From IMG/VR virus record IMGVR_UViG_641736224_000031: a stretch of 42,289 nucleotides of DNA; one strand, 5' to 3'. Within the stretch, counting starts at the first letter, position 1. Each line of letters starts with the position of its first letter. Positions 27,001 through 30,000 of this stretch are shown here, one piece after another. This DNA comes from a virus. Its lineage: Duplodnaviria > Heunggongvirae > Uroviricota > Caudoviricetes. Made by a program: the position numbers.

Positions 27001-30000
27001 GAGGAACAGAGTTAAAAAGCCGGAAGCGGAATCAAATCACAGGATGACCATCTGCCAGTGGCTGGTCGTAAAAAAAGGCCGCGCCATGCGCAGCCGAAAA
27101 TAAAGGGATAACGATGATAGTTTGAGAAAAACAGAAATAACACTTTTGTGGCAAAGCATGGTGCCGGGTGCCTCCCGGTGAATTCAGTATCAGCACCTGA
27201 ATCCGCGATTACCCCATATTCCTTCTTGCTGATTGCCCCACCGCACAGGGGGATTCACCATGCAGAAGTGTTTTTAATAAACAGCAAACAAAAAAATCAA
27301 GCATTATGCAGGCTGTTTCTTTTTATCACCGGCCACAGCAATACCATAATGCCGCAGACCAGCACCCCATCCGCCAGCACCGACATGATTCTGCTGGTGA
27401 AATCCACCATCACCACCAGAAACAGCAGGAGTGCAGCCACAGTCAGGCGCAGTTTTACCGTCACAGGTAATTCTCCAGACGAAGACCCAGAACACCGGCA
27501 ATCTCTTCCAGCACCTTGCGCTCTTCCGGCTCAATTTCGCCGTCTGCCTCCGCAATGGCCACCGCCACATCCAGCACATCTTCCGCTTCACGCGTATCGT
27601 GTTTCACATCCTCGATCTCACGTAACGCCGCACGACGACCAGTTTTAAAGTTCGTATCCAGCTGACCGATAATGGTTGCGCTAATCGCATTAATTTCTGA
27701 CGTAAACGCGTACAGCGCAGGCTGATTACGCAGTACCTGTTCGATCTTCGCTTTCTAGGAAGCCTCACATTCACCATCTGCACAGGCCACCAGGTATGCG
27801 GCGTTAATCACCACCTGTGCCAGATCGCGTTTTTCAAACTTTTTAATTTCCGTTGCCGCTCTGCGGGCTTTTTTTACCAAAAATACCAAACATCGTGACG
27901 TTCCTTTGGGTGGGTGAGCCAACGCCCGGGAGCGATCTGCCCACAGAGAAAGTCACACTGACCACTCCATAAGCTCCCCCCGAAAGGCTCTGTGGTTGGT
28001 ATGCGCCGGGCGTGGTGCGGATACAAAAAAGGTCCGCAAAAGCGAGCGAGGGAAAATAAGTGTGGTGCGTTGTACTGGGTTCGAACCAGTGACCGATTGC
28101 TTAGAAGGCAATTGCTCTGTCCGGCTGAGCTAAAAACGCAGAATACCGATAATGGACCGCCATCGGAGACTCGAACCCCGCGAAACCAGCTTCGAAGGCT
28201 GGCGTTCTATCCCGATGAGCTAATGGCGGTATGTGATGGTGGCCCTTGCTGGATTTGAACCAGCGGCCTGGCGATTATGAGTCGCTCGCTCTCACCACTG
28301 AGCTAAAGGGCCGGGCGCAGGATAATAACGTTACGAAATCAATGTTGCAAGCATTCAAGAATCACCTGGTTAAAAATTACCCTTGCTTCCTCCACCAGCG
28401 CATTCACCATGTCTATCCGAGATAAGTGGCACAAAAAAACCCGCTTGTGGGCGGGTTTTGTTTGCTTTTGCCATCACGTACAAAATCGGCAAAATATCAG
28501 ATTTGCATGAAATATATGCCTTTCAATCTACTTTTGCAACACTTTGCTTTGAAAATGCCGCCTTTTGTTTTGAACGCGTTCTCATTACAAACAATAAAGC
28601 CTCACTATCCAGTCGGTGAAAAATGTGTTTCATTGCAACCCAGTGACGAGTAAATGTTTTGGACCAGTTTTTAGTTGTCACTCCCACCAGTAATGCCAGC
28701 TCCTTGTATTCATAACCTTCCCCACCAAAAAGTTCTGCTTTTACTGCCTGCGCCGCCAGCCAGATTAATTTTTTCAGGCGTTCCTGCGTTTTCCCTGCAA
28801 TTTTTCTGGTACCGGATTGAGTATTAAATTCATTCCACGCCCACTGTGTTATCGCGATCTGATATTCCCAACAAATACTCCCGCTGTAACACCACAACAA
28901 CCAGGCTTTATGATGTTCTTCAAGAGACAGAACAGCCCGCCGCCACGATGATGTCGAAAACTCAACCGGACTGACCAGAGGAATTGACGTCACCTTCGCC
29001 AGCGATTGCTTTCCCGGGATTGGTGGATTATCCCGCGTTATCATTTTTCCAGTCACTTCATCGCGGTACCGGATTTTTTTTCGCCTGTAACGCCCTGTAT
29101 CGAACATGGCATTCTCCTGCCAGGCTTCAAGCTGACCTTTTGTTGCCCCACTCAAATCGGCGGTAGCGATAATGAGCAGCTCACGCACAAACTGTAAATA
29201 GTGGTTATTCATGCGCACTCCAGTTCTGTGATTTTTATCCCCAGCCGCTCACCAGGAACGAGCTGACCGCGCACAATATTGATTTCATCAAACTGCTCAT
29301 CGTCCATTAGCAACCCCGCATGCGTCAGCGCATCCAGCGGCGCTTTCAGAATATTGTCCAGGTCACGGCGGCGCTTATCCGGTGGCTCGGCAATAATCTT
29401 TATCGCCAGCCTTCCGGACAGGCTTAATTTCAGCCGCTGCTGGCGAACAATAAGCGCCACAGCCCGGCGATAACGCTCACCGGCTTTTGATACAAAATAT
29501 GTGCTGCCACGACGTCGCCAGTAGGTGTTCACCGTCGGCGGGTAAGGTAAAACCAAATCTATGAGCATCAGTCACCTCTTTTACCCGAGCACGCCAGTCG
29601 CAAAGGCGTGATCAAGAAAACGAAAAATTAACTCAATCTGAGAGCCGTACTTTTTCTCAAACTCCAGCGGGTCTGCATGAAGTTCGTTGTGGTGCTCCCG
29701 GCACAACGGTAGCGTGAAAATATCGTGGGCCTTTGTCCCCATTCCCCCCTGACCATGACCAATCAGGTGATGCGGATCGTCAGCAGGCTTACCACAACAC
29801 GCACACGGCTGTGTCTTTACCCAGCGCGTGTATTTCTCATTAACCCAGCGGCAACGTTTAGGCCGCCTCATGAACGATTCAGGAGACTCCGGATCAACGG
29901 CGATACTGACAACCGTTTTTTTCTGTGGTGGATTTTGTTGCTGGTGGACGTGAAGTGGCAGCGCAATATTTTTTGTGCGCTGCTTCAGTATGCTGATGGC

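Follow-up and report, generated by a model that had tools for sequence, protein, structure and literature searches.

We consider it rather probable that argN, the middle one of three tRNA genes in the window (the whole stretch of 42,289 nucleotides analysed here), is the CGA/CGG decoder of the tRNA cluster of Stx-type phages, and that the copy present in the window is weakened as well as redundant. The window is 100% identical to E. coli O157:H7 chromosomes and constitutes a defective, tccP-carrying lambdoid prophage, in which terminase and integrase are frameshifted, a capsid gene is truncated, IS1203 is inserted and a TerB pseudogene adjoins the tRNA genes. ARAGORN returns exactly three tRNA genes, each of which lies on the minus strand within 28063-28312, in agreement with Rfam and with the three tRNAs listed in a preliminary description of this DNA. 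The order CAU, UCG, UCU given in that description stands as the order of transcription, running from high to low coordinates, and is to be corrected with respect to the strand. The gene identities proposed there are borne out: the CAU gene is annotated as tRNA-Ile by PGAP and corresponds to ileZ of 933W, in keeping with the Ile2 type; the middle gene reads TCG in ARAGORN, is argN in 933W and carries the same assignment in the annotation of phage 2851; the third reads TCT in ARAGORN and corresponds to argO. On the identical sequence, RefSeq/PGAP lists tRNA-Ile, tRNA-Arg and tRNA-Arg, with a pseudogene flag on none of them. Hereby, ileZ is expected to carry lysidine-34 and to read AUA. The genes are separated by spacers of 7 and 13 nt (ARAGORN), and the CAU-UCG-UCU architecture is the commonest one among the sampled ileZ-anchor loci (89 of 149 segments). 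The trio is the ileZ-argN-argO cluster of Stx-type lambdoid phages. All coordinates are collected in Table 1.

Table 1. The tRNA genes of the window and the putative control elements around them, from high to low coordinates; Rfam scores refer to RF00005 (gathering score 29 bits).
Feature	Position	Strand	Basis
Antitermination protein Q gene	28523..29212	-	PGAP annotation, identical sequence
pR'-like late promoter (TTGCAA, 17 bp spacer, TATATT)	28511..28539	-	Consensus scan
tR'-like intrinsic terminator, AAAACCCGCCCACAAGCGGGTTTTTTT	28429..28459	-	Sequence reading; between Q and pT
pT-like sigma-70 promoter (TTGCAA, 17 bp spacer, TATTAT)	28322..28350	-	Consensus scan
ileZ, anticodon CAU, Ile2 type	28237..28312	-	ARAGORN, Rfam 72.5 bits, PGAP tRNA-Ile, 933W name
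argN, tRNA-Arg, anticodon UCG	28153..28229	-	ARAGORN, Rfam 44.4 bits, PGAP tRNA-Arg
argO, tRNA-Arg, anticodon UCU, reads AGA/AGG	28063..28139	-	ARAGORN, Rfam 63.3 bits
Weak terminator-like hairpin (GCTCGC-TTTT-GCGGAC, then CTTTTTTGT)	28022..28047	-	Sequence reading; 3' of argO

As described before, the trio follows the Q gene and a terminator, both of which lie upstream on the minus strand; the cluster is thus positioned 3' of Q, pR' and tR' and 5' of the late (stx / nanS-p / lysis) genes. The pR'-like promoter overlaps the 3' end of Q, and pR' of 933W is annotated at the end of Q; it is by its position only that the site in the window would be pR'. The terminator is composed of a hairpin (28459-28436) plus a T run, the terminator scan gives the same hairpin on the plus strand, and 933W carries annotated terminators at the equivalent place. 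At the pT-like site the hexamers are followed by a GC-rich stretch, CCTGCGCCC, and the site ends 9 nt 5' of ileZ. Its hexamers and their spacing are retained despite divergent upstream flanks (142 loci), and the homologous 933W site bears the annotation 'pT; putative tRNA promoter', which suggests that it may function as a promoter in the window as well. The weak hairpin 3' of argO is absent from the terminator scan output due to one stem mismatch; a 'possible rho-independent terminator' is annotated 3' of argO in 933W, and we assign a terminator here with low confidence.

Read directly, argN is CCGCCAU-UA-GCUC-AUCGGGAUA-GAAC-G-CCAGC-CUUCGAA-GCUGG-UUUCG-CGGGG-UUCGAGU-CUCCG-AUGGCGG-U-CCA, with the anticodon U34 C35 G36 at 28195-28193. 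The tRNA predictor leaves this anticodon unchanged, and PGAP makes no pseudogene call. The acceptor stem is perfect from C1-G72 onwards, as had been stated (7 of 7 pairs are Watson-Crick). The D stem comprises G10-C25, C11·A24, U12-A23 and C13-G22, so that the C-A mismatch noticed earlier resides in its second pair (C11 at 28219, A24 at 28205), which is the one non-standard pair marked in the cmscan alignment and the single exception among the 21 stem pairs of the cloverleaf. Furthermore, argN shows a G52·U62 wobble, U73 and an encoded CCA, and position 46 is U46 (28183) compared to G46 in the family. Positions 15 and 48 are U and G family-wide, the would-be 15-48 pair being U·G. Over the whole window argN is found with an Rfam E-value of 2.4e-06, and the D-stem mismatch costs approximately 10-14 Rfam bits (44.4 vs. 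53.6-58.4). A nearest-neighbour calculation on the fixed structure, which serves as a rough indicator only, gives a cloverleaf energy of -21.6 kcal/mol compared to -28.3 kcal/mol for a G24 revertant. Folding to the minimum free energy (MFE) was rejected as a test of function: a cloverleaf is obtained for the G24 revertant and none for the A24 allele, yet 933W argN, the consensus argO and ileZ likewise lack a cloverleaf as their MFE structure, so that the test does not discriminate. The neighbouring argO, which has A73, carries a derived mismatch of its own in the acceptor stem, U6(28134)·C67(28072); this pair is marked as non-standard by Rfam, and the gene scores 63.3 bits compared to 70.1 bits for the consensus form.

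On comparison of the aligned sequences, the mismatch in argN is a derived G24-to-A change of the window lineage and not a trait of the family. Of 38 distinct argN variants, 32 have C-G at pair 11-24, 3 have U·G and 3 have C·A, and G24 is present in argN of L002, L003 and 933W. The change of G46 to U occurs within the same 38 variants in the window copy only. The exact A24 allele is found in 335 complete genomes, and the A24 variant is accompanied by several different upstream Q modules; the G24A allele is fixed in O157:H7 prophages. A24 occurs on two argN backgrounds, namely the UCG type and a 'UUU' type, and on the background other than that of the window it leads to 80-nt remnants from which the anticodon arm is deleted.

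Across prophages argN is, by its sequence variation, the least constrained gene of the trio. Over the same 52 loci, pi amounts to 0.0685 for argN, 0.0113 for argO and 0.0033 for ileZ, which corresponds to a 6-fold higher diversity of argN compared to argO, and ileZ is nearly invariant over 147 loci. In an ileZ-anchored census of 117 loci, the middle slot holds copies with two to three mismatches in 16 cases; 3 more mismatch-laden copies are shifted by one base in the ARAGORN call, and 31 loci have remnants whose anticodon arm is scrambled or deleted, so that about 27% are wrecked; argO is clean in 82 of 86 cases in the ileZ-anchored sample. The middle-slot remnants of mEp460 and phiP27, in which the anticodon arm is scrambled and the T loop reads GCGGGUC, are missed by ARAGORN; unlike these, the window copy keeps both arms. 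Structural selection on the argN scaffold is seen in the pairing, with 96.5% of the cells paired vs. 28-54% with the partners slid, and with compensatory double changes at three stem pairs. Of 5426 complete E. coli genomes, 2007 contain the argN family, and the O157:H7 genomes listed have 4-6 argN-family places each, some with a perfect cloverleaf. A cellular origin of argN was considered and rejected, as no chromosomal tRNA-Arg(UCG) relative turned up when 185,579 species genomes were scanned with a degenerate pattern; the only matches, in E. albertii, an Escherichia sp. and two MAG contigs, all include the ileZ-argN part of the cluster or more. A role as integration site or satellite target was likewise discarded: the cluster is far from int/att and is not implicated in a satellite paper.

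The E. coli ArgRS identity set consists of A20, C35, U/G36 and A/G73, and the discriminator at position 73, which is A73 or G73 in the tRNA-Arg species of E. coli, is a minor ArgRS determinant. Of this set, argN has A20 (in the D loop AUCGGGAUA), C35 and G36. A20 is invariant in the 38 distinct variants, next to a position 20a that varies between U, A, C and G, and no UCG-type variant lacks C35; a purine discriminator is lacking, as all variants have U73. We infer a scheme, covering the promoters used, charging, the range of codons read and the remaining activity, in which the cluster would be transcribed from its own promoter pT, just 3' of tR', with Q-antiterminated read-through from pR' after induction as a second source of transcript. 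Host RNase P and the enzymes of 3' processing would cut the precursors, in which CCA is already encoded, and host ArgRS would charge argN via A20, C35 and G36. By the standard reading of the anticodon, UCG decodes CGA and CGG and not AGA/AGG, as had been proposed; argN would pair with CGA in Watson-Crick fashion and reach CGG through a U·G wobble. Since no E. coli tRNA gene is a Watson-Crick match to CGA (0 genes; PMC4032129, Table 1), argN would add a decoder absent from the host. In the window copy, G24A and G46U would weaken the D arm and the tertiary core, and the copy would be redundant given the 4-6 argN-family copies in O157:H7 genomes, some of them perfect cloverleaves. The window argN is thus probably a still-recognisable but weakened, redundant tRNA-Arg(UCG).

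Demand for such a decoder exists in the prophage, since its late genes are rich in CGG, CGA, AGA, AGG and AUA. Compared to 35 host core genes, the prophage uses, per 1000 codons, 21.0 vs. 4.2 CGG, 6.6 vs. 3.5 CGA, 10.5 vs. 0.6 AGA, 9.9 vs. 0.6 AGG and 7.6 vs. 2.2 AUA. In the late genes CGG is the most frequent Arg codon (28.3 per 1000), and the enrichment resides in the late structural genes, chiefly gpJ and the tail fibre; gpJ has 61 CGG and 18 CGA codons vs. 12 and 3 in lambda J. The prophage as a whole is much richer in CGR and AGR codons than lambda. Of the three cargo genes for which a codon-usage comparison had been suggested, one shows the enrichment: pch is rich in CGA/CGG (9 of 103 codons), whereas tccP and nanS-p contain neither codon. 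Co-evolution of tRNA carriage and codon use is not supported by a comparison of three phages (the window prophage, lambda and mEp460), because mEp460 has ileZ and argO and yet a lambda-like use of AGA/AGG. In addition, PMC4631060 reports that codon adaptation does not differ between tRNA-bearing and tRNA-free lambdoid phages. On these data, codon demand and tRNA carriage are not coupled across phages.

The window argN might alternatively be a decaying pseudogene, with G24A and G46U as early neutral decay and an RNA that misfolds or is degraded and makes no contribution to decoding, a reading that we hold to be possible but somewhat doubtful. It would fit that the derived mismatch strikes a pair kept in 35 of the 38 distinct relatives, that a second core base, G46, is lost too, that argO next to it has its own derived mismatch and that the predicted cloverleaf stability drops by about 6.7 kcal/mol in each of the Arg tRNAs. 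The prophage itself is defective (terminase, integrase, capsid, IS1203 and TerB lesions), the middle slot is frequently mismatch-laden or a remnant where argO is clean, A24 on the other background ends in deletion of the anticodon arm, and this copy is dispensable given the further argN copies that these genomes hold. Against decay, however, 20 of 21 stem pairs are kept, and direct reading shows the loop signatures U8, A14, G18G19, A20, A21, U33 and the UUCGAGU T loop with its UUCGA, as well as CCA and the anticodon; the score of 44.4 bits is above the gathering threshold of 29 bits, PGAP sets no pseudogene flag, and the exact allele persists in the 335 genomes, where it sits in prophages of several different backbones. 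Helices can accommodate a protonated A+·C pair, and some tRNAs tolerate single D-stem mismatches, which would also speak against decay.

That G24A is instead adaptive, providing a flexible D-stem hinge with faster accommodation and a wider reading by UCG (all CGN or near-cognates), appears very improbable. The position and the base change are identical to the Hirsh suppressor, A24 occurs on both the UCG and the 'UUU' backgrounds, and the allele is spread over several prophage mosaics. In tRNA-Trp, however, G24A turns a U·G wobble into U-A and strengthens the stem, whereas in argN the change disrupts a C-G pair; deletion remnants are tied to the second A24 background, and plain C-to-T transition drift on the coding strand accounts for the change. 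By analogy, G24A together with G46U could form a natural hinge variant that loosens the D arm and widens or speeds UCG decoding, to which we give hardly any credence; if true, a natural counterpart of the Hirsh suppressor would be spread across the prophages of O157:H7. Certain phage tRNAs evade anticodon nucleases, and the tRNA-Arg isoacceptors of E. coli are cleaved by colicin D. The Arg tRNAs might therefore chiefly be counter-defence spares that make good the host tRNA-Arg lost to nucleases of the colicin D type in the course of infection or induction, and not mainly a codon supplement; an arms race would be compatible with the odd argN body (C1-G72, U73, U15/G48) and with how fast the gene evolves. 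This, too, is very improbable, as the anticodon loop CUUCGAA is the best conserved part of argN where escape variants would be expected to alter the loop, no nuclease gene or defence context is seen near the cluster, and frequent pseudogenisation argues against strong selection.

We favour a weakened and redundant tRNA-Arg(UCG), whose mismatch is a small curiosity of little discovery value that adds no new feature. What is gained is a tidier reading of the locus, comprising the minus strand, the private G24A substitution and the argO mismatch. Family-wide, argN emerges as the weakly constrained member of the trio, which has frequently been retargeted or turned into a pseudogene. Intact, mismatched and wrecked argN are lumped together by annotation pipelines that tally 'phage tRNAs', and these states may matter for modelling rare-codon supply in EHEC. 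Within the literature collection searched, no paper gives a functional treatment of ileZ/argN/argO, prior knowledge consisting of GenBank annotations and two codon-usage papers; argN, the cluster, the putative promoter and the UCG/CGA assignment are already known from GenBank records.

Among the closest known systems is the cluster of 933W (NC_000924), which shares with the window the gene order, the pT-like promoter and the placement of the trio 3' of Q/pR'/tR' and ahead of the late genes. Its argN (ST933Wt02) is identical to the window argN at 71 of 77 positions without gaps, with the anticodon UCG, C1-G72, U73 and the encoded CCA in common; it forms a fully paired cloverleaf with G24 and G46, whereas A24, U46, U20a and a variant T stem set the window copy apart. 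In 933W, the annotation notes read 'CGG?' for argN and 'AGG?' for argO, and stx2AB follows the cluster; in the window, the cluster is followed by a TerB-family pseudogene, DUF3927, STnc100 and nanS-p, and stx is absent. Phage 2851 (FM180578) has a homologous middle tRNA (EP2851_tRNA_002) with UCG, annotated as 'codon recognized: CGA'. It keeps G24 but has a mismatch of its own in the T stem, A51·C63, and three G·U pairs, and its 43.0 Rfam bits are near the 44.4 bits of the window copy. Host tRNA-Arg(ICG) (argQ/V/Y/Z) and tRNA-Arg(CCG) (argX) serve the same CGN box as argN and share with it the D-loop layout AxxxGGAxA, A20 and C35; they start with G1-C72 and have A73 or G73, compared to C1-G72 and U73 in argN, and a UCG isoacceptor is absent from the host set (PMC4032129, Table 1). 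The Hirsh tRNA-Trp(G24A) and Salmonella LeuZ(A25G) are altered, like argN, at the 24/25 hinge of the D stem (PMC11805395). Those two are laboratory-selected alleles with demonstrated miscoding, and Hirsh G24A improves pairing, whereas A24 of argN is a natural allele that breaks a pair.

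By ARAGORN, the 42 kb of the window hold three tRNA genes and no more, all on the minus strand and with the anticodons CAU, UCG and UCU that a preliminary description had read from the sequence alone; all three exceed the gathering score of the Rfam tRNA model, 29. As the genes lie on the minus strand, the order used there is the order of transcription, from high to low coordinates. None of the three carries a pseudogene flag in the PGAP annotation. Read on the minus strand, the middle gene, argN, has the sequence CCGCCAU/UA/GCUC/AUCGGGAUA/GAAC/G/CCAGC/CUUCGAA/GCUGG/UUUCG/CGGGG/UUCGAGU/CUCCG/AUGGCGG/U/CCA. 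Its acceptor stem consists of seven perfect base pairs beginning with C1-G72, the anticodon U34-C35-G36 is located at 28195-28193, and the single non-standard pair is C11 (28219)·A24 (28205), also marked by cmscan; the perfect acceptor stem and the C-A mismatch in the D stem had both been correctly recognised beforehand. Judged against a canonical tRNA, the gene falls short solely in that not all stems are paired, and non-canonical bases occupy positions 15/48, 46 and 73. Among the identity bases for ArgRS, A20, C35 and G36 are present, while the purine at position 73 is absent. The window argN shows the characteristic traits of a UCG-anticodon tRNA-Arg, and order, position, promoter and sequence all assign it to the ileZ-argN-argO cluster.

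Features of the window referred to in the text
Feature	Position	Strand	Remarks
tccP-like gene	123-989		virulence cargo
tail-fibre N-terminal gene	1386-2555	-	
gpJ	3287-6766	-	1158 codons
major capsid gene	13553-13816		truncated
large terminase gene	17532-19461		frameshifted
pch/PerC	20643-20957		virulence cargo
IS1203	23838-25051	+	IS3 family; between nanS-p and holin gene
ALIL frameshift pseudoknot	24119-24235		in IS1203
TerB-family pseudogene, DUF3927 and partial STnc100 match	27461-27889 and 27120-27292	-	in this order directly 3' of tRNAs; TerB-family gene with internal stop
argO	28063-28139	-	ARAGORN Arg, anticodon TCT; Rfam 63.3 bits; PGAP tRNA-Arg
argN	28153-28229	-	ARAGORN Arg, anticodon TCG; Rfam 44.4 bits; PGAP tRNA-Arg
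ileZ	28237-28312	-	ARAGORN anticodon CAT; Rfam 72.5 bits; PGAP tRNA-Ile
second promoter-like site	28350-28322	-	TTGCAA-17-TATTAT; GC-rich stretch downstream; ends 9 nt before ileZ
intrinsic terminator	28459-28429	-	between Q/pR' and second promoter-like site
Q gene	29212-28523	-	RefSeq annotation
hokD/sok module	31078-31402		
integrase gene	41267-42289		frameshifted

Many E. coli O157:H7 chromosomes match the 3.7 kb surrounding the tRNAs at 100% identity, and the identical 42,289 bases occur in strain FRIK944, where RefSeq annotates a lambdoid prophage; it carries hokD/sok, an insertion of IS1203 and genes for an EspF-repeat (tccP-like) effector, PerC/pch and an esterase of the nanS-p type. 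With its terminase, capsid and integrase genes frameshifted or truncated, this prophage is defective. On the minus strand, the Q gene, which encodes the antitermination protein, is followed by a pR'-like promoter, the terminator, the second promoter-like site and the trio, in agreement with the earlier placement of the tRNAs after a Q-like gene and terminator. Hexamers and spacing of the promoter-like element are unchanged across very different upstream flanks, and it aligns with pT, the annotated putative tRNA promoter of the Shiga-toxin phage 933W. After argO follow the TerB-family pseudogene, DUF3927, a partial STnc100 sRNA, nanS-p, IS1203 and the holin and lysozyme genes. The STnc100 match (100.8 bits) lacks its 3' part; other phages carry full-length STnc100 (~160 bits) in the same relative place. 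Within the Q-dependent transcript, IS1203 thus sits between the tRNA/nanS-p segment on one side and the late genes for lysis and structure on the other, and separates the two.

A further 148 loci were collected from IMG/VR, anchored on the argN T arm or on ileZ. The D stem reads GCUC/GAGC and is fully paired in 933W, Stx2a-981509 and phage 2851, and of 38 distinct in-register argN-body sequences 32 have C-G, three U·G and three C·A at pair 11-24. C11·A24 is a derived point mutation. Three changes set the window allele apart from the consensus of the family: G24→A, G46→U, with UUUCG as the variable loop instead of UUGCG or CUGCG, and C62→U, which creates a G52·U62 wobble; two of them affect the D-arm/tertiary core. 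Clean relatives reach 53.6-58.4 Rfam bits, the window allele 44.4 and other mismatch-bearing alleles 40-43, and a three-mismatch allele scores below the threshold. The exact window allele is found in 335 complete genomes, mostly O157:H7 and usually twice per genome. In IMG/VR it is accompanied by a downstream module of ~99.7% identity and by several different upstream Q-region modules, which indicates transfer between prophage mosaics rather than one dead-end accident.

The middle position is also the variable one across prophages. Within the trio, argN is the gene under weak constraint: in 52 ileZ-anchored loci with all three genes in register, its nucleotide diversity amounts to 0.0685, that of argO to 0.0113 and that of ileZ, taken outside the anchor, to 0.0033. 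In a census of 117 ileZ-anchored loci, the middle slot holds a clean argN in 40, a one-mismatch copy in 1, two- or three-mismatch copies in 16, an ARAGORN call one base out of register in 3, a remnant no longer recognised by ARAGORN in 31 and other states, mainly a UUU-type gene, in 26. The argO copies contain no mismatch at 82 of 86 loci. The remnants retain both acceptor halves, their anticodon arm is scrambled or deleted and their T loop is ruined. One class, present unannotated in mEp460 (mEp460_ev081, locus L157, 39359-39458) and phiP27 (NC_003356, 17241-17326), keeps the D arm but has unrelated sequence in place of the anticodon arm and the T loop GCGGGUC; the second, of 80 nt, has lost the anticodon arm. 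Within the UCG type, every change is one-sided and leaves a G·U wobble or an A·C or A·A mismatch; compensatory double changes occur only between it and its sister UUU type. The latter, called tRNA-Lys by PGAP, has the anticodon loop CCUUUAA and resides in ileZ-X-thr(UGU)-gly(UCC) clusters (IMG/VR loci L131, L073, L089, L036 and about 15 others; E. coli genomes H134-H138). Its compensatory changes lie in the anticodon stem and pair 7-66, the Arg-type D loop and U73 are retained, and it carries C33 instead of the U33 universal in tRNAs. Another locus (L058, IMG/VR UViG_2671181028_000005) combines an argN-type body and a perfect cloverleaf (56.3 Rfam bits) with the anticodon UCU, a one-base switch to a specificity already provided by argO of that cluster. 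In argN-body variants A20 is invariant and the adjacent 20a freely variable. On this evidence, the argN scaffold has been under long-term structural selection, although single copies still decay often. The one by-product of mild interest is how labile the middle slot proves across the family, with UCU and UUU/C33 as anticodon-switched forms, and it lies outside the window.

Is the window argN then functional or a dead copy? Two derived changes are located in the D arm and core, and imposing the cloverleaf yields a nearest-neighbour energy of -21.6 kcal/mol compared to -28.3 kcal/mol for the single-base G24 revertant, a predicted stability loss of ~6.7 kcal/mol; MFE folding is uninformative here, since several intact relatives also yield no cloverleaf. 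Decay would moreover fit a family that decays easily, a defective prophage, the redundancy with other argN copies of the same cell and the damage to the sister gene argO. In the latter a derived acceptor mismatch U6·C67 (28134, 28072; marked by cmscan) and A73 replace the consensus G6-C67 and G73, lowering the Rfam score from 70.1 to 63.3 bits and raising the imposed-cloverleaf energy from -22.0 to -15.2 kcal/mol. Against a dead copy, which we consider the less likely case, speak the 20 of 21 retained stem pairs, the intact anticodon and all loop signatures, an Rfam score well over threshold, the missing pseudogene call by the annotators and the persistence of the allele on several prophage backbones. 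We favour, with some reserve, a weakened gene that is still a tRNA-Arg(UCG). By analogy to the Hirsh suppressor G24A or LeuZ A25G, hinge mutations affecting decoding speed and fidelity (PMC11805395), G24A could also alter decoding, which is unlikely because the exchange improves a pair in tRNA-Trp but breaks one in the window argN.

Most likely, pT would drive constitutive transcription of the cluster, Q-antiterminated read-through would give stronger transcription after induction, and host enzymes would mature the tRNAs. Host ArgRS may charge argN through A20 and C35, bases of its established identity set, and the tRNA would decode CGA via Watson-Crick pairing and CGG via wobble. No E. coli tRNA gene is a Watson-Crick match to CGA (PMC4032129, Table 1).

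Rare-codon use per 1000 codons
Gene set	CGA	CGG	AGA	AGG	AUA
35 host core genes	3.5	4.2	0.6	0.6	2.2
window prophage, 44 intact CDS	6.6	21.0	10.5	9.9	7.6
window prophage late genes	8.1	28.3	12.5	12.5	7.2
lambda late genes (without tRNA genes)	3.8	14.2	2.5	3.9	4.8
mEp460 late genes (ileZ, scrambled argN, argO)	6.1	13.1	3.0	3.4	4.3

Codon demand exists in the window prophage, with CGG being the commonest Arg codon of its late genes. gpJ contains 61 CGG, 18 CGA, 35 AGA and 34 AGG; lambda J, with 1131 codons, has 12, 3, 2 and 6, respectively. Rare Arg codons are extreme in gpJ and the tail-fibre N-terminal gene, suggesting that these tail genes differ from the remaining prophage in their compositional origin. 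As mEp460 carries ileZ and argO but shows lambda-like usage, tRNA carriage and codon use are uncoupled across mosaic lambdoid phages, in agreement with a published study (PMC4631060). The comparison of cargo genes proposed earlier proved mostly uninformative: pch has 9 CGA or CGG in 103 codons, tccP and nanS-p not a single one. The stx2A gene of 933W uses AUA for 15 of its 20 Ile codons; its reliance on AUA and on AGA (6) far exceeds that on CGA (2) or CGG (3).

The same cluster occupies the same place in 933W, where pT and terminators downstream of pR' precede genes named ileZ, argN (note "CGG?") and argO (note "AGG?") with the ARAGORN anticodons CAT, TCG and TCT; the window argN matches that of 933W at 71 of 77 positions without gaps. 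The homologous gene is annotated "codon recognized: CGA" in phage 2851 and named argN in Japanese Stx2a phage records. Three tRNA genes have been reported for 933W, VT2-Sakai, Min27, Stx2-II and Stx2-86 and only two for phiP27 (PMC4631060), the latter count being explained by the scrambled middle-slot remnant. Among 5426 complete E. coli genomes, 2007 carry the argN family (median two copies, maximum seven; 4-6 in each listed O157:H7 genome). In a pattern scan that represented each prokaryotic species by a single genome, it appears only in E. albertii, an Escherichia sp. and two MAG contigs. The complete Escherichia-type trio occurs on contigs of unrelated MAGs, 'uncultured Collinsella sp.' (L154, UQIB01000015.1) and 'Proteobacteria bacterium' (L151), probably as mis-binned Escherichia prophage DNA. 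Public annotation already covers argN, its anticodon and the role it probably plays, nothing of which is new in kind, and the mismatch of the window is a private SNP of one widespread argN allele.
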